Positions 3,969 through 25,489 of a DNA stretch of 60,537 bases are shown in pieces. How positions within the stretch are numbered: the first letter of the stretch is position 1; each line of letters begins with the position of its first letter. Origin of the DNA: an uncultured bacterium (lineage in GTDB: Bacteria > Patescibacteriota > Minisyncoccia > Phycocordibacterales > Phycocordibacteraceae); contig CAJEYI010000002.1 in NCBI GenBank assembly GCA_903994795.1, positions 1 through 60,537 on the forward strand, read 5' to 3'. The notes beneath the pieces were generated by a model. That model was given only the letters and a program-made list of their open reading frames with translations. It did no database searches and was not told where the DNA came from. Made by a program: the position numbers and the translations under genes.

Positions 3969-6900
3969 ATGTCACTACCTCAAAACACATTCCCATCAAA
4001 CAAGCGACCACAGCAGAGCAAGTCCTCTGACTGGAATGCGCTTCGTCTCTCGCTTGCGTCACCAGAGCGCATCCTCGAGTGGTCACGTGGGGAAATTACA
4101 AAGCCAGAAACTATCAACTACCGCACACAGCGTTCAGAAAAGCACGGACTCTTTGATGAAAAGATCTTTGGTCCAGAGCGCGACTATGAGTGTTACTGCG
4201 GAAAGTACAAAGGTATCCGTTATAAGGGTATTGTCTGTGATAAGTGTGGTGTTGAAATCACACGCTCAATCGTTCGACGCGAGCGCATGGGTCACATCGA
4301 ACTCGTCACACCAGTTGCACACATCTGGTTCCTACGTTCAATGCCATCTCGAATGGCACAGGTGCTTGGTGTCGCTGCTGCAGATCTTGAAAAGGTTATC
4401 TACTTCGCTGGCTACATCGTTACTAAGGTAAACGAAGAGACAAAGAAGCGACTTCTCAACGAGCTCGATAGCGAATACAAGACAAAGCACAAAGCAATGG
4501 AGAAGGAGGCAGATCGTGATGCACTCAAGGAGCGCATGACAATTGCTCGCCAGGAAATTGATAGTGTGGTTGTCGGAAAGGTTTTCGATGAAATCATGTA
4601 CCACCGCTTCTCAGTGAAGTACGGCACACTCTTCGAAGCTAAGATCGGCGCAGAAGCTATTTATGATATTTTCAGAAGCCTCAAGCTTGATGCGCTGAAA
4701 GATCAGCTCGAAGAGCGTTATGCAAAAGTTGGTGCAGCAGAGCGAGAGAAGCTTGCAAAGCGTATCTCACTCATCTCATCGATGATTGTCGCAAACGTAA
4801 AGCCTGAGTGGATGTTCCTCACAAAGATTCCGGTCATTCCACCAGCACTTCGACCAATGGTTGCTCTTGAGGGTGGTCGCCATGCGACATCTGACCTCAA
4901 CGACCTCTACCGCCGTGTGATCAACCGAAACAATCGTTTGAAGAAACTCATGGACATTCATGCTCCAGAAGTGATTCTTCGAAACGAGAAGCGCATTCTT
5001 CAGGAAGCAGTTGACGCACTTATCGACAACTCAATCCGCAAGACTGGTGCAAACGCAGGAGCACTTACTCCCGCACAGCGCCGACCACTTAAGTCTCTTG
5101 CTGACTACCTAAAAGGAAAGCAGGGATACTTCCGACAGAACTTGCTCGGAAAGCGTGTGGACTACTCTGGTCGTTCAGTGATCGTTGTTGGTCCTGACCT
5201 CGAACTCGATGAGTGTGGTCTTCCAAAGCACATGGCGCTTGAGCTCTTCCGCCCATTCGTTATTGCAGGACTTCTTCAGCGTGAACTCGCCTTCAACATC
5301 CGCGGCGCAGGTCGTTTGATCGAAGACTCAGTTCCTGAAGTATGGGAAATTCTCGAAGAAGCAATTAAAGGAAAGCACGTACTTCTAAACCGTGCCCCTA
5401 CACTTCACCGTCAGGGTATCCAGGCATTCCGCCCACGACTTATCGAAGGAGACGCTATCCAGCTTCACCCTCTCGTATGTCCAGCCTTTAACGCTGACTT
5501 CGACGGAGACCAAATGGCAATCCACGTACCGCTTTCAGAAGAAGCACAGTGGGAAGCTGCAAACGTCATGAGCGCAAACAAGAACATCCTCAAGCCAGGA
5601 TCTGGTGACATGATTGTTCTTACACAAAAGCCTCTCGACATCGTGCTCGGCTGCTACTGGCTCACAAAAGACGTTGCTGGAGAAAGGGGCGAAGGAGATT
5701 ACTTCTCTTCACCAAACTCTGCAATTCTTGCACGTGACCTCGGCGCAATCAGTGTACGTGCAAAGATCAACATCATGCCAGTACCTGGAAAGGAAAAGTA
5801 TGCTGCATACAATGGTCAGATCTTTGAGACAACAGTCGGACGACTTCTCTTCAACACAGTGCTTCCTGCTGACTATCCATTCGTTAACGACGCAATCACT
5901 ACGAAGGTCCTTCAGGCAATCATGAGTGACTGTATCGTTCGCTATGGAATCGATGCTGTTCCAGCTATCGTGAACAAGATTAAGAAGTTCGGATTCGAGT
6001 ACGCTACAAAGTCTGGAGTCTCATGGAGTCTTGATGATGTGCAGGTCCCAGTTGAGAAGAAAGCAATCATCGAGGAAACTCGTACAAAGGTTGCCGGCAT
6101 CGAAAGCGACTACCGTGACGGTCTCCTCTCTGAAGAAGAGAAGCGACGAATGGTTATCGAAACATGGCACGCAACAAAGACAAGTGTTGAAAAGGTTGTT
6201 GAAGCCGCACTCGATCCAGCAGGATCTGTGCACGACATGGTACGTTCTGGTGCTCGAGGATCTATCGGAAACCTCACACAGATGGCCGGTATGAAGGGTC
6301 TCATCCAGAACACTGCCGGAGAGACTATCGAAGTGCCGATCGTGTCATCTATGACTGAAGGGCTCAATCCAGTTGAGTACTTCATGAGTACGCACGGTGC
6401 TCGAAAGGGTCTCACAGACACAGCGCTTGGAACTGCTCGTGCAGGATACCTCACACGTCGTCTCTTCGACGTTGCGCAGGACTCAATCATCACTGAGCAC
6501 GACTGTGGTACAAAGCGTGGCATTGCAATCAACCGTGTGTCAGCATCAGGTATCCGCACTGACTTTGCGAAAGCAGTTCGAGGACGAGTACTTTCAGAAG
6601 CAGTTTCCGCAAACGGCGAAGTACTCTTCAAGAAAGGTCACTACCTTACAGCTGATGATGCGAAGCTCGTGAACGGTGCTGATGATGTCACAACAATAAG
6701 CGTACGTTCAGCAATGTCATGTGAGACTCGCTACGGAATCTGTCAGCTCTGCTACGGAATGGACCTCACTACTCAGGAGCTCGTTGATCTCGGAGAAGCA
6801 GTAGGAACAATCGCAGCGCAGGCTATCGGTGAACCAGGAACACAGCTCACAATGCGTACATTCCACGCCGGAGGTACAGCGTCAGTTGGTGGAGACATCA

Positions 6901-7721
6901 CTCAGGGTCTCCCTCGTATTGAGGAAGTCTTCGAGAAGCGTTCTCCAAAGAATCCAGCAATCGTCTCAAAGATCGACGGTATGATTACCGACATCAAAGA
7001 GTCAGGCCGCGAGAAGATCATTGTGGTACAGCCAGAAGCAGGACAGGGCAAGAAGGACGGTTCAGCAACTGAATACCTTGCAGTCTATCCTCGTCAGGTG
7101 CATGTGAAGATTGGAGACAAGGTTAAGAAGGGCCAGCTCCTCACAGACGGATCTGCAGACCTCGACGAACTCTTCGACTTCGCAGGACGCGCTATGGTTC
7201 AGGAATACATCATTACTGAAACATCAAAGATCTATGAACTTCAGGGAGGTTCGGTTTCTCGAAAGCATCTCGAAGTTGTCGTGAAGCAGATGTTCTCACG
7301 ATCGAAGATCACTGAGACTGGAGATTCTGATCTCTCGGTAGGTGATGTGTTCGAACACTGGGAATTCGAAGAAATGGTTAAGGAAATGGAAGACGGAGGC
7401 AAGCTTCCACCAAAGGCCCGCGAAATGGTTCTTGGTATCAAAGAGTCTGCACTTTCTCGTCGATCATTCCTTTCAGCTGCGTCATTTGAGCAGACGACAA
7501 AGATTCTCATCAATGCGTCACTCAAGGGATCAGTTGATACACTTCGAGGACTTAAGGAGAACGTTATCCTTGGTCGCTTGATTCCTGCCGGAACAGGTTT
7601 CGCAGGAAGCAAGAAGCGTGCTGCAATCGACGCACTTCAGAACACTCGCCGCATGAACGCTGCAACATATGCAGCAGAGGAAGCGGAGAAGGAGTTGGCG
7701 GATGCACAGAAGGGAGCTTAG
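3969..7721 (+). CDS. rpoC: DNA-directed RNA polymerase subunit beta'
   Basis: The ORF is 1250 aa. It has the zinc motif CYCGKYKGIRYKGIVCDKCGVE and the catalytic NADFDGDQM motif, and lies 6 nt after rpoB. Confidence 0.97.
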   Translation: MSLPQNTFPSNKRPQQSKSSDWNALRLSLASPERILEWSRGEITKPETINYRTQRSEKHGLFDEKIFGPERDYECYCGKYKGIRYKGIVCDKCGVEITRSIVRRERMGHIELVTPVAHIWFLRSMPSRMAQVLGVAAADLEKVIYFAGYIVTKVNEETKKRLLNELDSEYKTKHKAMEKEADRDALKERMTIARQEIDSVVVGKVFDEIMYHRFSVKYGTLFEAKIGAEAIYDIFRSLKLDALKDQLEERYAKVGAAEREKLAKRISLISSMIVANVKPEWMFLTKIPVIPPALRPMVALEGGRHATSDLNDLYRRVINRNNRLKKLMDIHAPEVILRNEKRILQEAVDALIDNSIRKTGANAGALTPAQRRPLKSLADYLKGKQGYFRQNLLGKRVDYSGRSVIVVGPDLELDECGLPKHMALELFRPFVIAGLLQRELAFNIRGAGRLIEDSVPEVWEILEEAIKGKHVLLNRAPTLHRQGIQAFRPRLIEGDAIQLHPLVCPAFNADFDGDQMAIHVPLSEEAQWEAANVMSANKNILKPGSGDMIVLTQKPLDIVLGCYWLTKDVAGERGEGDYFSSPNSAILARDLGAISVRAKINIMPVPGKEKYAAYNGQIFETTVGRLLFNTVLPADYPFVNDAITTKVLQAIMSDCIVRYGIDAVPAIVNKIKKFGFEYATKSGVSWSLDDVQVPVEKKAIIEETRTKVAGIESDYRDGLLSEEEKRRMVIETWHATKTSVEKVVEAALDPAGSVHDMVRSGARGSIGNLTQMAGMKGLIQNTAGETIEVPIVSSMTEGLNPVEYFMSTHGARKGLTDTALGTARAGYLTRRLFDVAQDSIITEHDCGTKRGIAINRVSASGIRTDFAKAVRGRVLSEAVSANGEVLFKKGHYLTADDAKLVNGADDVTTISVRSAMSCETRYGICQLCYGMDLTTQELVDLGEAVGTIAAQAIGEPGTQLTMRTFHAGGTASVGGDITQGLPRIEEVFEKRSPKNPAIVSKIDGMITDIKESGREKIIVVQPEAGQGKKDGSATEYLAVYPRQVHVKIGDKVKKGQLLTDGSADLDELFDFAGRAMVQEYIITETSKIYELQGGSVSRKHLEVVVKQMFSRSKITETGDSDLSVGDVFEHWEFEEMVKEMEDGGKLPPKAREMVLGIKESALSRRSFLSAASFEQTTKILINASLKGSVDTLRGLKENVILGRLIPAGTGFAGSKKRAAIDALQNTRRMNAATYAAEEAEKELADAQKGA

Positions 7722-7740
7722 TTCTCTTAGTTAAAGAGAT

Positions 7741-7784
7741 GAAAATAACAACAGTCCCGCTTTAACGGGGCTGTTGTTATTTTC
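7741..7784 (+). terminator. rho-independent terminator of rpoBC
   Basis: gaaaataacaacagtcccg / cggggctgttgttattttc forms a 19-bp stem with one G-U pair. Confidence 0.8.
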
Positions 7785-7843
7785 ATAAATATTTTATCTT
7801 TATTTTAAATTCATTTTAACTACTTCCTGTACAATGCCTGCTA

Positions 7844-8362
7844 ATGCAAAAGTCAGGGAATAATTATGCATTCATAGATAGTCAGAACTTGAACCTTGGA
7901 ATTCATACACAAGGTTGGGATTTGTCGTTTATAAAATTCAGAAAATACTTAAAAGAGAAATATGCAATCACCAAAGCATTCGTGTTCCTTGGATATATTA
8001 GGGAAAACGAAAGTCTTTATAAATCCTTACGGGACGCAGGATTCTTATGTGTATTTAAGCCGACAATTAAGCAAAAAGGAATTGTAAAAGGCAATTGCGA
8101 TGCTGAACTCGTACTCCAGGCGATGATTGAATACGATAACTACGACAAAGCAATAATAGTGAGTGGTGATGGAGATTTCCAGTGTCTTGCAAGATATCTG
8201 CAAAGTACTAAGAAACTACTAGCATTACTGATTCCAAATCGCCACCAGTTTTCTTCGTTACTTAGATATAAGATATTTAGAAAATACTTGAGATGTATGG
8301 ATGAATTAAAATCGATTCTTGCGAGTGATAAGGAAATAGATCCAAAAGAAAAGGCCTCGTAG
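7844..8362 (+). CDS. NYN-domain (LabA/PIN-like) putative ribonuclease, copy 1
   Basis: NNYAFIDSQNL at the N-terminus, NCDAEL and VSGDGDF match the acidic-residue pattern of NYN domains. It is a paralog of 16798-17322. Confidence 0.8.
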   Translation: MQKSGNNYAFIDSQNLNLGIHTQGWDLSFIKFRKYLKEKYAITKAFVFLGYIRENESLYKSLRDAGFLCVFKPTIKQKGIVKGNCDAELVLQAMIEYDNYDKAIIVSGDGDFQCLARYLQSTKKLLALLIPNRHQFSSLLRYKIFRKYLRCMDELKSILASDKEIDPKEKAS

Positions 8363-8380
8363 GGACGGGACCCTACGAGG
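8355..8380 (+). terminator. hairpin enclosing the NYN-1 stop codon
   Basis: cctcgtaggg-acggga-ccctacgagg is followed by tgatctttt. The TAG stop lies in the 5' arm. Confidence 0.5.
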
Positions 8381-8467
8381 TGATCTTTTCCGATTTCAAC
8401 CATCTATATCTTAGTACGAGTAGATATTGTAGTCAAATCAATGTTCTCGAAGATATAATCAGACGAT

Positions 8468-8983
8468 ATGCGCATAAGTATTATTGGATTACCAGGCAGC
8501 GGAAAGACTACACTTGCAAAGATGCTACGTGATAGGTTTTCTATACCTCATATCCACATTGATCAATTTTGGTTTGAGGCGGGTGGCACCAAGGGAAGTC
8601 GAAACACTCATCCGGAAAAGTTAGAAGAGATCAGGGCGTACATTCGAGAAAAGGTCGGACCTCTACTTTTAGAAGAATCATGGGTTTCAGATGGTTTTTA
8701 TCCCCAGATTCAAAAAGATATTGCGGAACGTGCAGATATAATCCTCTTTCTTGATATTCCACTTTGGCGACGTCTCTTAAATCATATTCAGAGAATGTGC
8801 AAACCTTCTGCTCGACACAAACAGCTTACAGTGTGGGACGACATCACTTTCATTCCAGAAATTATTCGAAGGACCATTGTGAATAAAAGTAAGTATGATG
8901 GGTTTATAGGAGAGTATCGGGATAAAATAGTCACGTTACGTTCCCGGAAGCAAATCAAGGATTATCTTAATAAATTAAGCTAA
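8468..8983 (+). CDS. P-loop NTPase, adenylate-kinase / topology-modulation (FlaR)-like
   Basis: The Walker A motif GLPGSGKTTLAK is at the N-terminus. Size (171 aa) and layout are typical of small nucleotide kinases. Confidence 0.65.
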   Translation: MRISIIGLPGSGKTTLAKMLRDRFSIPHIHIDQFWFEAGGTKGSRNTHPEKLEEIRAYIREKVGPLLLEESWVSDGFYPQIQKDIAERADIILFLDIPLWRRLLNHIQRMCKPSARHKQLTVWDDITFIPEIIRRTIVNKSKYDGFIGEYRDKIVTLRSRKQIKDYLNKLS

Positions 8984-9001
8984 AGATCATATATTTATAG
9001 A

Positions 9002-9039
9002 TAGTCAAAAAGTCAGAAAAATTTTATCTTACGTTCAGC
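9002..9039 (+). promoter_or_regulatory. shared promoter-like block, copy upstream of the decayed mazF-like gene
   Basis: tagtcaaaaagtcagaaaaattttatcttacgttcagc aligns with the blocks at 12835, 24893, 46441(-) and 60101(-). Confidence 0.45.
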
Positions 9040-9071
9040 TTTTTTCAATATTAAATACGTAAAGTATAAAG

Positions 9072-9226
9072 ATGGATGAGTACGTAAAAGACTTTGACTC
9101 GTGGGGTGAGGAGAAGAAACGCATTGAAGCATTTGGATATCATAAACCTTGTAAGGAAGGAGAAATTTGGTGGTGTATCCTTGCATGTTCCTCTATATAC
9201 GAGAAATCGCTAGAAAATTATTCTAG
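9072..9226 (+). pseudogene. MazF/PemK-like toxin gene with a large internal out-of-frame deletion
   Basis: The N-terminus MDEYVKDFDSWGEEKKRIEAFGYHKPCKEGEIWWC aligns to 12904-13008. The sequence then jumps directly to the last 16 codons (PCMFLYIREIARKLF-stop) in another frame. The 71-aa ORF in the track (9072-9287) is read-through. Confidence 0.7.
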
Positions 9227-9379
9227 CGATTTCTCAAGTATCCCCTTGCGGGGTAGACATGAACTACATATCCTTCTTCCGTTATGAAGGCGGGAGGTAA
9301 TCTCACGATTCCTCCAGACATCTCTTTCGAGATAGATCCGAAGACCCAAGTTGCTTCCTCACTTGAAGAGAACAACTTA
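9201..9379 (+). ncRNA. structured 3' RNA element associated with mazF-like genes, copy A
   Basis: P1 is gagaaatcgctagaa/ttctagcgatttctc. Further helices are cccc/gggg, ccttc/gaagg, ggagg/cctcc and atctc/gagat. The invariant blocks ctcacgatt and tccgaagacc are present. It is homologous to 13265-13446 with compensatory changes. Confidence 0.5.
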
Positions 9380-9468
9380 TGATTGAATTATATTCTTTTG
9401 AAATTTGTAGTCAATTAGTTGAAACAGTAAAGCCTTTTGCAGACTCTAAATTAAGCTATAATCTCAGT

Positions 9469-10065
9469 ATGAATCAGAAGCGTCTAATATTAGCGTCTAC
9501 ATCTCCTCGCCGAAAGGAGCTTCTCGAGAGCACCAGCTTTGCTTTTGAAATTATCGGAAGTGAATACGAAGAAGACATGACGCTCCCAATGGAAGCAAAA
9601 GACTTGGTAATGTTCTTGTCAAAAGGTAAAGCGGAAGTTGTGGCTAAATTACATCCTGATGCCGTGGTTATTGGTGCGGACACATTTATTGTATTTAACG
9701 GTAAGGTACTTGGGAAACCTCATACGCCGGAACGAGCGGAAGAAATGCTTAAGGAATTGCGAGGTTCAAAAGTATCGATACTTAGTGGCTTTACAGTAAT
9801 TGAAAAATCAACAGGAGTATCTGTGTCAGATGTAGATGAATCATTTGTGTATTTTAAAGACTATACAGATGAAGACATCCTAAAATATATTGAAACAGGT
9901 GAACCACTTGATAGGGCAGGAGCCTTTGCAATACAAGGTATTGGAAAAATATTAATTGATAGGTTTGAAGGCGACATAGAAGGTGCAATGGGTTTGCCAT
10001 TAAAGAAATTAGTTCCTATACTCCATAATTTTGGAATATTTCCTAATCTGCAGGAATCAAATTAA
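9469..10065 (+). CDS. maf: Maf-like nucleoside triphosphate pyrophosphatase
   Basis: LILASTSPRRKELL near the N-terminus, DT.V and AGAFAIQG are characteristic of the Maf family. The start is placed at ATG 9469 (MNQKRLILAS) rather than the ORF-track 9379. Confidence 0.85.
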   Translation: MNQKRLILASTSPRRKELLESTSFAFEIIGSEYEEDMTLPMEAKDLVMFLSKGKAEVVAKLHPDAVVIGADTFIVFNGKVLGKPHTPERAEEMLKELRGSKVSILSGFTVIEKSTGVSVSDVDESFVYFKDYTDEDILKYIETGEPLDRAGAFAIQGIGKILIDRFEGDIEGAMGLPLKKLVPILHNFGIFPNLQESN

Positions 10066-10068
10066 TGT

Positions 10069-11832
10069 ATGAATAAAAAGATTCAATATCTACATTCGTC
10101 AGTGAAGACGCTTTCATTTGCCTTTGCGCCAGTACGCACGGGATATATGGTCTTGTGGACACTTGCTATTCTCGGGAATATCTTTTCGTATTCACTCCCG
10201 TATGTTTTGAAAATCATGGTTGATAAAGTGGGCGAAGTAAAGACGGGACTCGTCATGCATGATTTTCTTCTGCCGATCATACTTGTAGCGGTGATATTTA
10301 TTTTTCAAGAAGCGCTCTACCGTATTGCAAATATTATAGAAATTGGAGTTGCCACGAAGTCGTTTCGACATATAACCCAAGATCTGTATTCAAACTTACT
10401 TAAGCGACCGACCTCATACTTTGAAGATAAGTTTTCAGGTGATTTGTCTCGACGTATTCAGCAAGTGAATACGGGTGTTTTGTATTTCGCGAGTGAATTT
10501 CCGTGGATGGCGAGCTGGATTGTCACTGCCATTGTCATGGCCGGTATACTCCTCGGTATCACAAATCTAAGTCTCTTATACATATATCTTGCATGGTTTG
10601 TATTCTTCCTTTTGACATCGATTCCGTTGCTGCGATGGTTTTATGTGTCGTCTGAAAAGACCGCAACAGTGCATGCAAAGCTAAGTGGAAACATGATTGA
10701 TTCATTTGGAAATGTTTCGCTCGTGCATTCCTTTGGTGCGATTCTGCATGAGGAAAATTTAAACGCAAAGACTCTAGACGAAGTTGTCGGAGCTGAAGTT
10801 AAAAACAAATGGATTGAAGTATTCAATAAGTTGCAGCAGGGAACATGTCTCGCAATTCTCGGCATTGCACTTATCTGGGAAAGTGCGTATCTCTTCACGC
10901 AAGGCTCTTTCACTGTTGGTGACTTTGTCGTCGTGGCCTCGGTTATCCCTACGCTCGTCGGAGTGGTGTGGAGCTTTGGTGAAATTATCATGCGTGCCAC
11001 ACGACAATTCGGAGAGCTCTCAGATGCACGGAAGGAATTAGCCGATGAGCAAGAGGTGCTAGAAGGTGGAGACATTCATGCGCATGATAGCGCGTATGAT
11101 CTTGAATTCTCAGATGTATCGTTTCAATATAAAGGCACAGACGACGCTGTATTTAAAAAGTTTTCACTTAGTCTCGCGCAGGGCGAGCGCGTTGGAATTG
11201 TTGGGACTTCTGGAGCAGGAAAGAGTACCCTTATGAAATTGCTGCTCCGGCAGTACACACCGCAGTCCGGCTCTATAACTATTGGAGGAGTTTCAATTGA
11301 ACAGTTTTCGCTAAGCGCACTGAGAAACCTCATAGCGTATGTTCCGCAAGATCCATCACTATTCCATCGAACCCTCTACGAAAACATTCGCTACGCAAGA
11401 CCTACGGCCACAGATGCTGAAGTTGTTGAAGCGAGCAGGCAAGCACATGCTCATGAATTTATTGAAGCTATTCCCGAATCATACAGTGCAATGGTAGGAG
11501 AGAAGGGAATAAAACTTTCCGGAGGCCAGAGACAACGCATTGCACTTGCACGCGCAATTCTAAAAGACGCTCCCATAATTATCTTGGACGAAGCAACCAG
11601 TGCACTCGACAGCGAAAGCGAATCACTCGTGCAGGAAGGTCTCGAAGAGCTCTTTAAAAATCGTACCGTAATAGCAATTGCTCATAGACTTTCAACACTT
11701 CGAGCTATGGATAGAATTGTAGTGATTGAAAACGGACTAGTTGTCGAAAGTGGCACACCACACGAGCTTCTCACAAATGACCAGAGCATCTTCAAAAGAA
11801 TGTGGGAACACCAGAAAGGAGGCTTTATTTAG
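10069..11832 (+). CDS. ABC transporter, fused permease/ATPase (MsbA/type I exporter-like)
   Basis: There are six predicted N-terminal TM helices. The motifs are Walker A GTSGAGKST, signature LSGGQRQR and Walker B IIILDEATS. Confidence 0.9.
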   Translation: MNKKIQYLHSSVKTLSFAFAPVRTGYMVLWTLAILGNIFSYSLPYVLKIMVDKVGEVKTGLVMHDFLLPIILVAVIFIFQEALYRIANIIEIGVATKSFRHITQDLYSNLLKRPTSYFEDKFSGDLSRRIQQVNTGVLYFASEFPWMASWIVTAIVMAGILLGITNLSLLYIYLAWFVFFLLTSIPLLRWFYVSSEKTATVHAKLSGNMIDSFGNVSLVHSFGAILHEENLNAKTLDEVVGAEVKNKWIEVFNKLQQGTCLAILGIALIWESAYLFTQGSFTVGDFVVVASVIPTLVGVVWSFGEIIMRATRQFGELSDARKELADEQEVLEGGDIHAHDSAYDLEFSDVSFQYKGTDDAVFKKFSLSLAQGERVGIVGTSGAGKSTLMKLLLRQYTPQSGSITIGGVSIEQFSLSALRNLIAYVPQDPSLFHRTLYENIRYARPTATDAEVVEASRQAHAHEFIEAIPESYSAMVGEKGIKLSGGQRQRIALARAILKDAPIIILDEATSALDSESESLVQEGLEELFKNRTVIAIAHRLSTLRAMDRIVVIENGLVVESGTPHELLTNDQSIFKRMWEHQKGGFI

Positions 11833-11913
11833 TGATTCTATTGCCGATGGGATATGTTTGCATTTGTATAATTTCGTGGTTTACTTATAGGCATACAAGC
11901 TCGTAATATACTT

Positions 11914-12744
11914 ATGATACAAACTACTACTCAAACAATAGCTAAAGCACTAGTGGCTTCTGGAATTCTGTCACTGTTTGTCCTGATCGCGCCCTCAGCT
12001 TTTGCTCAGGAAAATGTAAATATACAAATTCCAGGTATCTCAGTTCAAACGTCTGAGGCAGGAGCAAAAGTAAATGTTGGAGGATTGATTAATGTGGATA
12101 CTACTAAAGGCTCAACGAGTGTTAGTAATGCTGGCACAAATGTAAATATTGGTGGAGATGGAATTCTCATTAACACCAGTAACGGCACGGCTGTATCGCT
12201 TGGTGCAAATGGTGAAAATCTTAGTGTTGTTGCAAGCACAGGACTTACCGCGCCTAGTGTAAAAGCAGTTGTGTCTCTATCAGGAAATCCATCTGCATAC
12301 ATAAAGACCGATGCTGATACTCAGGCATACAATAAGCTCGTCATGACTGCAACTCCAGCGGTTCAGAGTATCGATTCAAATAATCAGAAAGTGAGTGTTT
12401 CGTACAAGCAACAAGGAAGACTCTTTGGGCTTTTCAATGTGCAGATGGATGGAAAGGCAAATGTTGATGCAAGTGGAAACGTATCAATAAACCTCCCATG
12501 GTATAGCGTCTTCGTCGTAAAGAATACAGGTGATATCAAGACTTCAATTAAGACTGATCTAAATGCTGCGAAGACCTCAAACAAAGTAAGTGTTTCGACC
12601 GGCACACTTGCACCAGTTGATCAGGCGCAGATTGTGCACGTAGTTGCGAACTCAATCGCAGGAAATGTGAGTGTGGAAGTTAATGGCGAAAATACATCTG
12701 TACAAACAGGTGGGACTTCAGTAAAAGTTAACGAAGGGAATTAA
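11914..12744 (+). CDS. secreted repetitive protein, unknown function
   Basis: A signal-peptide-like N-terminus ends in AFAQE. The rest is S/T/N/V-rich with recurring VN(V/I)GG and T.V.V patterns. Confidence 0.55.
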   Translation: MIQTTTQTIAKALVASGILSLFVLIAPSAFAQENVNIQIPGISVQTSEAGAKVNVGGLINVDTTKGSTSVSNAGTNVNIGGDGILINTSNGTAVSLGANGENLSVVASTGLTAPSVKAVVSLSGNPSAYIKTDADTQAYNKLVMTATPAVQSIDSNNQKVSVSYKQQGRLFGLFNVQMDGKANVDASGNVSINLPWYSVFVVKNTGDIKTSIKTDLNAAKTSNKVSVSTGTLAPVDQAQIVHVVANSIAGNVSVEVNGENTSVQTGGTSVKVNEGN

Positions 12745-12782
12745 GTCAGAAGAAGAGGAAGCAGGCCGCAAAAAGATAATCT

Positions 12783-12824
12783 AACAACAACAGCCACGCG
12801 AAAGCGTGGCTGTTGTTGTTTTTA
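12783..12824 (+). terminator. rho-independent terminator
   Basis: aacaacaacagccacgc-gaaa-gcgtggctgttgttgtt is followed by tttt. Confidence 0.8.
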
Positions 12825-12834
12825 CGTACAAGCA

Positions 12835-12881
12835 GTTTAAAACTCAGAAAATCTTTAGAAATACTTTAGCTTTCCTTCAGC
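12835..12881 (+). promoter_or_regulatory. shared promoter-like block upstream of the mazF-like gene
   Basis: gtttaaaactcagaaaatctttagaaatactttagctttccttcagc is near-identical over about 45 nt to the block upstream of pilB (60101-60149, minus strand). Confidence 0.5.
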
Positions 12882-12903
12882 GTGAATTTGTCATTATTCC
12901 TTT

Positions 12904-13290
12904 ATGGAAAAGGATTTTGATGCATGGAATAATCAAAAGAAGTGGATCCAAAAGTATGGGAGGCAGAAATCATATAGAGAAGGAGAAATATGGTGGTGCT
13001 ATTCAGGAACAAATATCGGATCAGAACAAGATGGTACAAGTCACAGATTTCAACGCCCTGTATTGATCTTAAAAAGCATAACTAAGAATTTTTGTTACAT
13101 TCTTCCACTGACCACATCTTTGAAAGAACATTCATATAACATCCCAATCGGAAAAATTGATGGGAAAGAAGCCATGGTAATTTTATCTCAGCTCAGAACT
13201 ATTGACACAAAAAGACTATCACGCAAAATTCAAGTTATTGATCCATGCATGTTTCTTTATGTACGAGAAAACACTAGAAAGTTATTCTAG
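12904..13290 (+). CDS. MazF/PemK-family endoribonuclease toxin-like protein (no adjacent antitoxin ORF)
   Basis: EGEIWWC, GSEQDG, RPVLIL, ILPLTT and SQLRTIDTKRL match the MazF/PemK fold pattern. There is a 25-aa N-terminal extension. Confidence 0.8.
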   Translation: MEKDFDAWNNQKKWIQKYGRQKSYREGEIWWCYSGTNIGSEQDGTSHRFQRPVLILKSITKNFCYILPLTTSLKEHSYNIPIGKIDGKEAMVILSQLRTIDTKRLSRKIQVIDPCMFLYVRENTRKLF

Positions 13291-13446
13291 TGTTTTCTCA
13301 AGTTGTCCCCTTTGATAGGGGTAAATGCCCGAAGGCACAAATCACCCTCTAATTGCAGGGCGGATGAAACCTCACGATTTCACCGTGTCCTCTTGCGAGG
13401 TATGGTCCGAAGACCAAAGTCCATACGTTTTACGGCAGAACTTATA
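13265..13446 (+). ncRNA. structured 3' RNA element associated with mazF-like genes, copy B
   Basis: P1 is gagaaaacactagaa/ttctagtgttttctc and overlaps the last 10 codons plus the stop. Further helices are cccct/agggg, ccct/aggg, cgg.tg/ca.ccg and cctc/gagg. The same invariant ctcacgatt and tccgaagacc blocks as copy A are present. Confidence 0.55.
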
Positions 13447-13534
13447 GAATAAGTATATTCCTGAGATTTTCGCCGTCAATAGTTCGGGCCGACGGAGTTC
13501 GTGCTTCGGAGCGAAAGGGAGTAAAATTGAGGTA

Positions 13535-15388
13535 ATGGCTCAGGAGGACTCACACACCACTCAACAACAATCGCCCCATACTCAGGCATCTGGTCAGGGT
13601 GGAGACACTGTACAGAAAGTGAAAGACAAGCTCTCAATAATCGAGGTGGTGACACCGTACGTGAAGCTCACGCGGGCAGGGAAGTACATGAAAGGTCTTT
13701 CGCCATTCACAAAGGAAAAGACGCCGTCATTCTTCGTGAACGCAGAGCGCGGCAGCTACTACTGCTTCTCAACAGGACAGGGAGGCGACATGTTTACGTT
13801 CGTTCAGAAGATGGAAGGTGTGGACTTCATGGGTTCGCTCAAGCTTCTCGCAGAAAAGGCTGGAGTTGAAATCACCACTGACCGTGTGTCGGCAAAAGAC
13901 CGTGGTCGCACAGATCGACTTCGCGAAGCGATGTCGCAGGCGACGCAATTCTACTCATCGGCACTTGCCGCGAAAAAAGAAGACGTTAACTCCGGCGTGG
14001 CCGCTTCAGGCGCAGCAGCGCACACATACGCAATTGATCGCGGACTCACTGAAGAAACAATTGCGTCATGGAGTTTAGGATTTGCGCCGGACACATGGCG
14101 CGCGCTTCTCGAAGATTTGCAGGGCAAGGGATTCACAAATGCCGAGCTCACGGCAGCCGGACTTATAAAGGAAGCTGATGGTCGTCCGGGTACGTGGTAT
14201 GACCGATTCCGCAATCGGTTAATGTTTCCAATTCGAGATATTGCTGGGCGCACGGTGGCATTCACTGGACGTGCACTTTCAAAGGACGATCAGGCTAAGT
14301 ATCTAAACAGCCCAGAGACAGAACTATTTCATAAGTCAGAAGTGTTGTTTGGAATGGATCGCGCGAAGGATGCTATTCGTACGCGCGGGTTTGCGATTCT
14401 CGTAGAGGGGCAGTTTGATTTGTTGCTTTTGCACCAGATCGGTTTTCAGAATACTATCGCGCTTTCGGGGACTGCACTTTCGCACCAGCATCTTTCGTCT
14501 ATTAAGCGATACGCAGAAAACTTGATGCTGTGCCTCGATGCTGATAAAGCTGGACTCGCTGCAAGTGCAAAAAATGCAGAGGCCGCGCTTCGCGCGGGCA
14601 TGCGCGTGAAGGCCGTGCGACTCCCGGCCGGGAAGGATCCCGCAGATCTTGCGAGCGCTCCTGGAGGTGCGAAGGATTTCGCAAAGCGAGTTGCAGATGC
14701 TCAAACAATTGTGGAGTTCTTTTTGTCAGTACTCACTGCAAGCGAGAAAGATCAGTTGCGTTTGGTGATGGCAGCAGAGAAGACCGTGATGCCACTTATT
14801 GCTGCAATCCAAAGTCCACTTGAACGCGAACATTTTGTGGGTGTGACTGCGCGAGCACTTGGGCTCACGAGTGAGGCAGTCCGAGCTGCCGTGCCACAAG
14901 ACCCGAACGGGAGAGCCAGCACTGGAGGGCTTAATCACGGCGCGAGTCATACTGGAATCAGTTCAGGTGCCGGCAACACTGCCGACCCTTTTGGTCGCAA
15001 CAAAACCACTCCCGCAAACGTACTATCTAGTGTGACCGCAACTTCTGTCAGACGAGGGGACTTTCTTCTCGCGCTTGCAGAGACTTATGCAGATAACCCC
15101 CTTGCGGAAACCCTTAAAAGCGAGTATTCTCGTATTATTGGCGCTGTTCCAAGTGAACCGATTTCAGAGCGCGCCCTTTTTGAGGCTGGACTTGCCTACG
15201 GGGAGCCGCCTACAGATTCAGAAATAGCAGATCTCATACGTGTATTCGCACGCGCAGTTCTCACTGAGCGATTAAAGGTGGCAACTGACGAGCTCCGACG
15301 AGCCGAGCTACAGGGCGATAGTGAAGCAATCAAAACATCAGCAGCAGTCTGTAAGGAAATCAACGCGAAACTTTCCGCACTTCACTAA
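13535..15388 (+). CDS. dnaG: DNA primase
   Basis: It has an N-terminal zinc-ribbon region (SPF..EKTPSF.V......Y.CF..G.GGD) and a TOPRIM region (EG..D, D.D.AG). Confidence 0.93.
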   Translation: MAQEDSHTTQQQSPHTQASGQGGDTVQKVKDKLSIIEVVTPYVKLTRAGKYMKGLSPFTKEKTPSFFVNAERGSYYCFSTGQGGDMFTFVQKMEGVDFMGSLKLLAEKAGVEITTDRVSAKDRGRTDRLREAMSQATQFYSSALAAKKEDVNSGVAASGAAAHTYAIDRGLTEETIASWSLGFAPDTWRALLEDLQGKGFTNAELTAAGLIKEADGRPGTWYDRFRNRLMFPIRDIAGRTVAFTGRALSKDDQAKYLNSPETELFHKSEVLFGMDRAKDAIRTRGFAILVEGQFDLLLLHQIGFQNTIALSGTALSHQHLSSIKRYAENLMLCLDADKAGLAASAKNAEAALRAGMRVKAVRLPAGKDPADLASAPGGAKDFAKRVADAQTIVEFFLSVLTASEKDQLRLVMAAEKTVMPLIAAIQSPLEREHFVGVTARALGLTSEAVRAAVPQDPNGRASTGGLNHGASHTGISSGAGNTADPFGRNKTTPANVLSSVTATSVRRGDFLLALAETYADNPLAETLKSEYSRIIGAVPSEPISERALFEAGLAYGEPPTDSEIADLIRVFARAVLTERLKVATDELRRAELQGDSEAIKTSAAVCKEINAKLSALH

Positions 15389-24932: not shown

Positions 24933-24961
24933 TCTATCACTCTTGTGTACACTGTGTGGCT

Positions 24962-25366
24962 ATGGATTCCGAGAAGGACGTACGACATGAAAAGTGGAGT
25001 CAGAAACAACAACTTCTAGATTTAAACAAGAGAGATCTCCTTTTTAAGGAAAGGGAGATTTGGTGGTGTTCTGTAGGGATGAACATCGGGGAAGAGGTGT
25101 ACGGAAAAGGCCCAGACTTTAAAAGACCCGTTCTAATTTTGAAAAAGCTTTCAAATAACTCATGTATAGTCTTACCCATAACCACCAAAAGACATTCTGG
25201 AAATTGGTACTATAAATTTACTTCGCATGATATGACTCGTTGGGTAATGATTCATCAAATACGTTCTATTTCTGCAAACAGATTTGCTAAAAGACAGGGC
25301 GAGTTACGGGAGGACGACTTCAGTAAATTAAAGAAGTCCGTAGCATCTCTGCTCGGACTTCTTTAA
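24962..25366 (+). CDS. MazF/PemK-family toxin-like protein, third and more divergent copy
   Basis: EREIWWCSVGMNIGEE..G....KRPVLILKK, VLPITTK and HQIRSISANRF are present. The last codons and the stop lie in the hairpin aagaagtccg/cggacttctt. No antitoxin ORF is adjacent. Confidence 0.75.
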   Translation: MDSEKDVRHEKWSQKQQLLDLNKRDLLFKEREIWWCSVGMNIGEEVYGKGPDFKRPVLILKKLSNNSCIVLPITTKRHSGNWYYKFTSHDMTRWVMIHQIRSISANRFAKRQGELREDDFSKLKKSVASLLGLL

Positions 25367-25489
25367 AAATCGTCAACGAGCCAACGGCTCGAATCGGTGG
25401 GTATCCCCAAAAATCTAACTCACTTAGTATATCAAGCTGATTTGGAGATGCAAATGCATTCGGACTCAGAGTGTCGTAGAATAGAGGTA

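Follow-up and report, generated by a model that had tools for sequence, protein, structure and literature searches.

MazF is the textbook type II toxin, defined by its neutralisation through the MazE protein. In the par system of pAD1, one bidirectional terminator serves both the fst RNA I and RNA II (PMC8167048), and the txpA/RatA and bsrG/SR4 loci of Bacillus subtilis are type I pairs with convergent antisense RNAs overlapping at the 3' ends (PMC3834814, PMC6562991). The type III systems ToxIN, CptIN, TenpIN and AbiQ/antiQ combine an endoribonuclease toxin with a structured RNA made of tandem repeats, which lies upstream on the same transcript and is separated from the toxin gene by a terminator (PMC8167048). 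Antisense RNAs have also been described for SymE/SymR, a type I pair with a nuclease toxin of AbrB/MazE-like fold, in which SymR overlaps the 5' untranslated region (UTR) (PMC8167048), and for the complete mazEF locus of Escherichia coli, inside which the antisense RNA aMEF stimulates expression from a poorly conserved promoter (PMC8749433). Here we analyse a contig of 60,537 nucleotides from an uncultured member of the Patescibacteriota (CAJEYI010000002.1 of assembly GCA_903994795.1), called the window in its full length. It carries, at 12904-13445, a MazF toxin gene without a protein antitoxin and, convergent to it, a predicted gene for a structured small RNA (sRNA), which is likely to serve as RNA antitoxin or regulator of the toxin. 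This is copy A of the module; copy B, with the toxin core deleted and the RNA intact, lies at 9072-9420.

By its arrangement, the module comes nearest to those type I systems in which convergent RNAs overlap at their 3' ends, above all to par of pAD1. As in par, txpA/RatA and bsrG/SR4, the genes converge, a structured RNA of ~80-220 nt has its own predicted promoter, and complementarity is limited to the 3' ends or the terminator. Both marks of a type I antisense RNA were recognized at the sequence level, as a convergent promoter and a 33-nt overlap with the toxin transcript. A type I toxin is typically a small hydrophobic peptide, and the RNA acts against the translation or the stability of its mRNA. 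No such peptide was found at this locus; unlike the small membrane or hydrophobic type I toxins, the one encoded here is a soluble 128-aa RNase with a MazF fold. Unlike par, the module has neither 5' direct repeats nor complementarity to the toxin translation start, and the most conserved part of the RNA is its non-overlapping 5' domain.

With type III systems the module shares the combination of an endoribonuclease toxin and a structured RNA in the absence of a protein antitoxin, and direct inhibition is plausible here. ToxN-type toxins share a Kid/MazF-like fold. Unlike in type III, the RNA lies downstream, on the opposite strand and behind its own promoter, no ToxI-like tandem repeats were found at the sRNA, and the toxin is a true PF02452 MazF rather than a member of the ToxN/AbiQ family. 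Toxin family, fold and catalytic residues are those of type II MazEF (B. subtilis EndoA/EndoAI, Staphylococcus aureus, E. coli), from which the module differs by the absence of mazE or any conserved adjacent protein gene, by an extra N-terminal helix and by the obligate convergent sRNA. Like SymE/SymR and aMEF, it couples an antisense RNA to a nuclease-type toxin or a mazF locus; unlike SymR, the RNA overlaps the 3' end of mazF and not the 5' UTR, and unlike at the aMEF locus, there is no mazE. In the full-text literature (subscription journals lie outside this coverage) we came across neither a MazF family with a convergent sRNA as its partner nor an sRNA of this kind from the candidate phyla radiation (CPR); the nearest case is aMEF. 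The module is probably a toxin-antitoxin (TA) module with an RNA antitoxin, and could be a new TA type if direct binding holds.

The MazF toxin and the search for a protein antitoxin

12904-13290, plus strand: mazF copy A, an intact gene for a MazF/PemK-family endoribonuclease of 128 aa (Pfam, profile and fold)

The open reading frame (ORF) 12904-13290 matched PF02452 (PemK_toxin) with 44.8 bits, above the curated cut-off of 23.1 (E 1.6e-11), in agreement with the MazF/PemK identity that an earlier reading of the sequence (the original prediction) had assigned to it. The nearest solved relative of the family profile was MazF/EndoA of B. subtilis (4MDX, 1NE8; E 1.4e-7 for 4MDX). In the profile match, the catalytic Arg (in RPVLIL) and a Thr (in PLTT) aligned with the catalytic residues R25 and T48 of EndoA. 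The AF2 model had a pLDDT (predicted local distance difference test) of 88, and its top 50 fold matches in the PDB were all MazF/MoxT/EndoA. Judged by Pfam, fold and the catalytic Arg/Thr, the ORF is a genuine MazF/PemK endoribonuclease. We detected 633 homologues, mostly of 128 aa and nearly all from CPR/Patescibacteria (Paceibacteria-type) metagenomes. Together with the sRNA, the module spans ~500 bp.

The protein of copy A ends in an unusual C-terminus, DPCMFLY(I/V)RE, which it shares with three closer relatives, from L081, L084 and L085 (L082 is partial); these carry the same element downstream. At the other end, the AF2 model has an extra helix (residues 5-18), which canonical MazF lacks. 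This helix is formed by an N-terminal extension (residues 1-25) outside the MazF core, with the conserved motif KDFDxWNxxKK. The C-terminal tail of MazE is acidic and contains Trp, and the composition of the extension recalls it. The extension could act as an intramolecular regulator of the toxin.

Two observations concern the start of the gene. In the subclade of copy A, a conserved block, TCAGAAAAnCTTTAG(N5)CTTTAG, lies ~35-60 nt upstream of mazF (window 12841-12875, plus strand; L082; L084; copy B at 9012-9040), and may be a promoter or operator. Within it, at 12849-12869, Tandem Repeats Finder (TRF) reported two copies of an 11-nt repeat. In the more typical genes of the clade (L001-L080), the 20 nt upstream of the start lacked a Shine-Dalgarno sequence, and a TATAAT-like box lay 6-9 nt from the ATG, which suggests that typical mazF mRNAs are leaderless.

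Copy A follows a gene for a 276-aa hypothetical protein and the terminator of that gene (12783-12820), and is followed by dnaG, starting at 13535. No MazE/PemI-type ORF was present on either side in the ORF list of the window, as the original prediction had noted, and the adjacent co-transcribed protein antitoxin of type II MazEF was not found at copy A. Across related loci the neighbouring genes vary on both sides of mazF. Among ~70 loci, ORFs within ~350 nt upstream of mazF formed no conserved family, the largest cluster of similar ORFs having 2 members. NCBIfam and PADLOC had neither a specific family nor a defence system for the module.

A predicted convergent sRNA gene on the minus strand

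The original prediction had seen in this region an RNA fused to the 3' end of the toxin mRNA. The data point to a separate convergent gene with its own minus-strand promoter, of which only the terminator hairpin overlaps mazF, by 33 nt. The predicted features are as follows.

13452-13479, minus strand: sRNA promoter of copy A, sigma-70 type (-35 TTGACG, 16-nt spacer, -10 TATACT; 10/12 match)
13255-13445, minus strand: predicted sRNA of copy A, ~190 nt, from its fold, with ends inferred from promoter spacing and hairpin H3
13343-13445, minus strand: subclade-specific 5' extension of the sRNA, with a weak E1 5' of E2, then E2, E3, E4 and E5
13403-13416, minus strand: hairpin E2 of the extension, UUCG loop
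13389-13400, minus strand: hairpin E3, GCAA loop
13363-13384, minus strand: hairpin E4, GUGA loop
13343-13362, minus strand: hairpin E5
13258-13343, minus strand: sRNA core, member of the family R1 (55.2 bits, E 1.1e-11)
13325-13338, minus strand: core hairpin H1 (GCC-UUCG-GGC)
13307-13321, minus strand: core hairpin H2
13265-13299, either strand: 15-bp core hairpin H3 over the last 10 mazF codons and the stop, a putative bidirectional terminator common to the convergent mazF and sRNA transcripts

A sigma-70 scan of the 4.8 kb between 8900 and 13700 found 14 sites, with 10.6 expected by chance; the two best were the minus-strand promoters at 13479-13452 and 9414-9387, in front of the sRNAs of copies A and B. 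The same sequence is the most distal conserved block in all subclade copies and reads, on the minus strand, TTGAC(G/T/A)-N16-TATA(C/A)T (TTGAC(G/T)-N16-TATA(C/A)T in the window). It is kept in copy B, L081, L084 and L085, while its flanks vary.

The original prediction had described the 15-bp hairpin at 13265-13299 with several further helices after it, and all of these are present. The region folds far better than chance: the minus strand of copy A reached -76.9 kcal/mol (z = -7.6; plus strand z = -5.4), and that of copy B -79.6 kcal/mol (z = -6.5; plus strand z = -4.2). In the consensus of copy A, copy B and L081, 12 pairs are preserved via double changes. Read on the minus strand, copy A has the loops UUCG, UUCG, GCAA and GUGA, and copy B has UUCG, GAAA, GUGA and GCAA. 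The two blocks formerly taken as single-stranded are stems on this strand: CTCACGATT is capped by a GUGA tetraloop (E4) and TCCGAAGACC by UUCG. In copy B, the TCCGAAGACC stem (helix E2, GGGUC/GAUCU) pairs on the minus strand only, through G-U pairs.

These features bear on the possibility of a plus-strand RNA, in which the mazF mRNA would carry the structure as its 3' UTR and the structure would act in cis on the toxin. The plus strand too folds better than shuffled sequences, because the helices are largely strand-symmetric, and the subclade hairpin has no plus-strand U-tract, so that mazF transcripts may physically include the region. The corresponding plus-strand loops (CGAA, TTGC, TCAC), however, are not stable tetraloops, helix E2 of copy B would be lost, and the distal conserved block is a minus-strand promoter. 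RNAalifold proposed a plus-strand closing helix P0 (ATATAC/GTATAT), which we rejected: the minus-strand promoter has its -10 box in the 3' half of this helix, outside the transcript, and the helix is that box matching Leu-Tyr-Ile/Val codons.

Both window copies, L081 and L082 have the 5' extension; L084 had an intermediate version, and at L085 only ~30 nt lie between promoter and core. The extension was absent from the 78 typical loci evaluated, where the promoter abuts the core. The comparison, in which the subclade is represented by five loci and the two window copies, indicates that the sRNA of this subclade gained a ~100-nt 5' extension with 4-5 extra hairpins, and that its promoter moved outwards. 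These ~100 nt were the part that had been most striking in the original prediction.

An sRNA family tied to a MazF clade

Of 346 loci detected in related genomes, 80 were fetched and 78 could be evaluated, the other two being masked or truncated. A covariance model (R1) was built from the RNAs of 21 typical loci, with no window sequence in the seed. It placed the sRNA at the mazF 3' end, on the minus strand and overlapping the stop codon, at 78/78 evaluable loci and at 5/5 subclade loci (L081 to L085). In the window it matched 13258-13343 with the values listed above, and 9194-9272 with 43.7 bits (E 1.2e-8). The element is not peculiar to the window; it has a core belonging to a widespread sRNA family of a whole MazF clade.

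The typical sRNA has ~80 nt. It starts with 5'-(U)ACAAGU, continues with H1 (GCC-UUCG-GGC), a 3-nt linker, H2 (5-7 bp with a GNRA loop), an A-rich linker and H3, and ends with UUUUCUUAU. Its non-overlapping 5' domain is the most conserved part in sequence, and in sequence the sRNA is better conserved than the protein. In an alignment of 88 sequences, 97.4% of the cells paired for the minus strand, compared with 92.8% for the plus strand; these percentages are somewhat inflated because the alignment was fitted to the model structure. Double compensatory changes were present in 22/23 pairs of the minus-strand core; the observed values were reached by 0/500 shuffles, and slid partners gave at most 59% pairing. 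The H1 loop was UUCG in 79/88 copies and the H2 loops were mostly GNRA, in both cases on the minus strand only.

The promoter is a family trait as well. At least 9/12 positions matched before 79% of the sRNA copies and at 2.6% of random sites, and in 59 of the 69 copies with such a promoter the -10 box ended exactly 5 nt before the start of the R1 model. Matches of at least 10/12 were found in 61% of 87 copies and at 0.3% of random sites.

These results bear on the strand and on the existence of the gene. Minus-strand matches to R1 scored 44-100 bits; those on the plus strand reached no more than 39 bits and were confined to the palindromic hairpin. In the 88-sequence alignment, the ratio of G-U to A-C was 114:21 on the minus strand, and the 114 G-U pairs would turn into A-C mismatches on the plus strand. 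A cis-acting plus-strand RNA therefore appears highly improbable to us. We give even less credence to the idea that there is no gene at all, only an intergenic spacer with a bidirectional terminator, GC-rich hairpins and a sequence that resembles a promoter by chance. H3 is terminator-like, and promoter scans do yield many chance matches, as in the 4.8-kb scan. The comparative data already contradict this idea: the promoter stands at a fixed distance in most of the 87 copies, H1 and H2 covary, and the RNA is retained as an orphan, with compensatory changes, after toxin loss (see below).

Rfam 15, searched on both strands at gathering and permissive thresholds, had no family for this RNA, as the original prediction had anticipated; the window and 18 typical loci gave only tRNAs. 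The best sub-threshold match on the sRNA was ctRNA_pGA1, with 19 bits against a gathering score of 45. By these searches, the sRNA is an unnamed family, absent from Rfam and tied to the whole CPR/Patescibacteria MazF clade. A search for the motifs CTCACGATT and TCCGAAGACC downstream of 80 homologous genes had found neither, which first suggested a lack of conservation, until the minus-strand core was recognized. A metagenome pattern scan for the P1/H3 hairpin gave 5 chance matches only and no new subclade members. Two loci with the module carry non-CPR labels, L026 (a metagenome-assembled genome (MAG) of Chitinophagaceae) and L054 (a MAG of Nanoarchaeota); these labels could reflect a binning error or horizontal transfer.

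The hairpin shared by mazF and the sRNA

Family-wide, H3 has compensatory changes in 14/15 pairs. The match of the sRNA model overlaps mazF by 33 nt in 64/67 typical loci, as it does in copy A. At typical loci, mazF's own terminator has a U-tract to which the A-rich linker of the sRNA is complementary, and the codons of the conserved protein motif IRK are the complement of the U-tract of the sRNA. Because linker and codons complement the two U-tracts in this way, H3 looks like a bidirectional terminator. Its typical form is a GC-containing stem with clear A-tract and U-tract flanks, GAAAAGCC...GGCUUUUCUUAU. The window hairpin has its U-rich part within the stem (GUGUUUUCUC); the bases that follow are GUAC on the minus and AAGUUG on the plus strand, and the terminator scan did not list this hairpin.

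Copy B and other orphan or decayed modules

The diverged second copy of the RNA region (about 9177-9420) had been noticed before, and it is part of a larger remnant.

9072-9176, plus strand: mazF remnant of copy B, the first 35 codons, with the last 17 codons following out of frame from 9177 (tblastn)
9190-9380, minus strand: sRNA of copy B, ~190 nt, structurally intact in its predicted fold, with the R1 core at 9194-9272
9387-9414, minus strand: sRNA promoter of copy B, TTGACT-N16-TATAAT (11/12 match, the best in the scan)

By tblastn, 9087-9176 matched residues 3-32 and 9158-9223 matched residues 107-128 of the toxin. The two units of a direct repeat (D1), at 9177-9239 and 13241-13303, are 86% identical, and 241 nt of the toxin's catalytic core (window 13000-13240) have no counterpart. 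What copy B keeps is the mazF promoter region, the 35 codons of the N-terminus and the complete sRNA together with the sRNA promoter; it is therefore a whole module (9072-9420) with an internal 241-nt deletion. Its RNA differs from that of copy A at many positions, with every helix kept by compensatory changes, so that it has either been under selection or lost its toxin recently.

Similar cases were found elsewhere. At L040 (2736-2935), an independent and similar internal deletion left an in-frame mini-ORF (38 N-terminal and 12 C-terminal codons) with the sRNA. L074 (2837-2924) and L076 (2661-2748) are complete orphan sRNAs with no toxin remnant, and at L013 (3613-3867) a decayed module retains 62 N-terminal codons, H1, H2 and the promoter. 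Among the loci evaluated, no intact toxin of the R1 clade was found without the sRNA. An sRNA that occurs without the toxin, and a toxin that never occurs without the sRNA, are the signature expected of a TA pair.

The gene order at L081 is rpoB-rpoC-mazF-sRNA-dnaG-rpoD. In the window (3969-13535), ~5 kb separate rpoC from copy A and hold an NYN-domain gene, a P-loop kinase-like gene, copy B, maf, an ABC transporter and a secreted hypothetical gene. Compared with L081, this places copy B roughly at the ancestral position of the module. For the Maf-like ORF listed at 9379-10065 (plus strand), the probable start is 9469 (MNQKRLILASTSPRR...); the first 30 codons of the listed ORF fall on the sRNA promoter of copy B and its 5' flank.

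A second MazF subfamily with its own predicted sRNA

The window encodes a third MazF-like gene, which belongs to a different subfamily.

24956-25366, plus strand: MazF-like gene of subfamily 2, 136 aa, ~37% identical to copy A (tblastn E 1.5e-24)
25325-25453, minus strand: convergent promoter (-35 at 25453-25448, -10 at 25431-25426) and predicted sRNA-2 (~25420 to 25325), whose terminator hairpin overlaps the subfamily-2 stop codon

Among the homologues of this subfamily, 75 have PF02452. The predicted sRNA-2 starts with 5'-ACAUUUGGGGnnACCC, mostly continuing ACUGAUCC, and goes on with a covarying second hairpin, GUGAC and the terminator overlapping the stop codon. We saw this layout in the window, at L013 and in four further independent contigs (L091/L092, L093, L094/L095 and L096; the downstream sequences are identical within L091/L092 and within L094/L095, and each pair was counted once). 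A distinct sRNA for each toxin subfamily, in the same arrangement, argues for cognate pairing of toxin and RNA. The subfamily-specific conserved 5' domain fits recognition by a cognate protein, and a type III-like mode is suggested by these sequences.

A further variant was found at L008, where a second MazF-like paralogue (~180-700) has stop codons in its N-terminal region, is possibly a pseudogene, and also faces a convergent promoter. The sRNA variant there reads UACAAAUGGCC-ACUU-GGCC, followed by a GCAA-capped hairpin that is the terminator and does not overlap the gene. L008 hints that the overlap of sRNA and mazF may be dispensable.

The comparison of subfamilies also bears on an account in which the sRNA is real and not an antitoxin. 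The toxin would then be held in check by its own N-terminal helix, in an EzeT-like manner, or by an unlinked protein, and the sRNA would fine-tune expression like aMEF or act on other targets. Precedents are EzeT and MrpC/MazF-mx (PMC4803016) and aMEF (PMC8749433). The conserved helix with KDFDxWNxxKK outside the MazF core speaks in favour of this account, as does the survival of the N-terminal part in the three toxin remnants (copy B, L040, where it is in frame, and L013). The sRNA, however, was found at 78/78 loci and is more strongly conserved in sequence than the protein, the orphan sRNAs of L074 and L076 have no N-terminal remnant, and the subfamily-specific sRNAs argue for cognate pairing. 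The promoter of an aMEF-type antisense RNA is, moreover, poorly conserved (PMC8749433), unlike that of the MazF-clade sRNA. On balance we regard this account as unlikely.

Proposed mechanism

What the comparison shows directly is how the genes are arranged, on which strand the RNA lies and where its promoter is, that its structure covaries, that it occurs strictly together with the toxin, and that no neighbouring protein is conserved. The reading that we favour, and hold to be likely on this comparative evidence, is a MazF toxin without a protein antitoxin combined with a convergent structured sRNA as RNA antitoxin or regulator. With the sRNA, a toxin of a type classically neutralised by a protein probably has an RNA antidote, one not described before. 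An RNA partner of the toxin had been the core of the original prediction; this part stands, in that the RNA is the toxin's constant companion and its most plausible neutraliser or regulator, whereas the strand and the fusion were wrong, as the G-U to A-C ratio, the loops and the R1 scores indicate.

The proposed module would consist of two genes, one for the MazF-family endoribonuclease toxin and a convergent one for the sRNA, whose terminator hairpin overlaps the last 33 nt of the toxin gene. The sRNA would act as antitoxin or negative regulator in one or both of two modes, which are not mutually exclusive and appear roughly balanced. In a type I-like mode (a), the sRNA and the mazF mRNA, perfectly complementary across the shared hairpin, would pair loop to loop, leading to cleavage or decay of the mRNA; alternatively, convergent transcription would interfere with mazF expression. 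In a type III-like mode (b), the conserved non-overlapping 5' domain (5'-ACAAGU, H1 with UUCG, H2 with GNRA) would bind the MazF dimer directly. We lean slightly towards a contribution of (b), because conservation is highest in the 5' domain, no target complementary to this domain exists in mazF, and the domain differs between the toxin subfamilies. Pairing of the sRNA 5' domain with the mazF 5' region or translation start, as in par, gave no signal (mean z +0.36).

Carried further, the sRNA may be a direct protein-binding inhibitor of a genuine MazF, that is, a single-copy, convergently encoded pseudo-substrate. This would be a new TA type, in which the protein antitoxin was swapped for a structured RNA across much of CPR and toxin and RNA co-diversified. 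We put this forward tentatively, as a possibility that we think more doubtful than probable. EndoA cleaves at U^ACAU. Both sRNA families start with (U)ACA, which is not kept in L081, L084 and L085; the resemblance to the EndoA site is suggestive, and the shared start could instead reflect the transcription start context.

Several points weigh against an sRNA antitoxin or against parts of its proposed mechanism. The transcription of the sRNA, the RNA ends, the toxicity, and the neutralisation with its mode are all inferred from comparative genomics. In the subclade, no clear U-tract follows the hairpin on either strand, so that termination is uncertain there and mazF transcripts may read through towards dnaG. 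The L008 terminator, which does not overlap the gene, weakens mode (a) and does not prove mode (b). The conserved extra N-terminal helix (residues 5-18) could regulate the toxin intramolecularly. Finally, the contigs are short and a distant, trans-encoded protein antitoxin may exist, for which MrpC, acting on the solitary MazF-mx, is a precedent (PMC4803016).

Significance

Annotation pipelines label genes such as mazF copy A 'type II toxin' without a partner and miss the RNA entirely. If the proposed reading is true, a large and phylogenetically coherent MazF clade with an obligate, covarying sRNA would blur the boundaries between the type I, II and III classes, and antitoxin chemistry would be exchangeable on one toxin scaffold. 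The sRNA would then also be the first family specific to CPR/Patescibacteria whose function can be interpreted; next to nothing is known about regulatory RNAs in these organisms.

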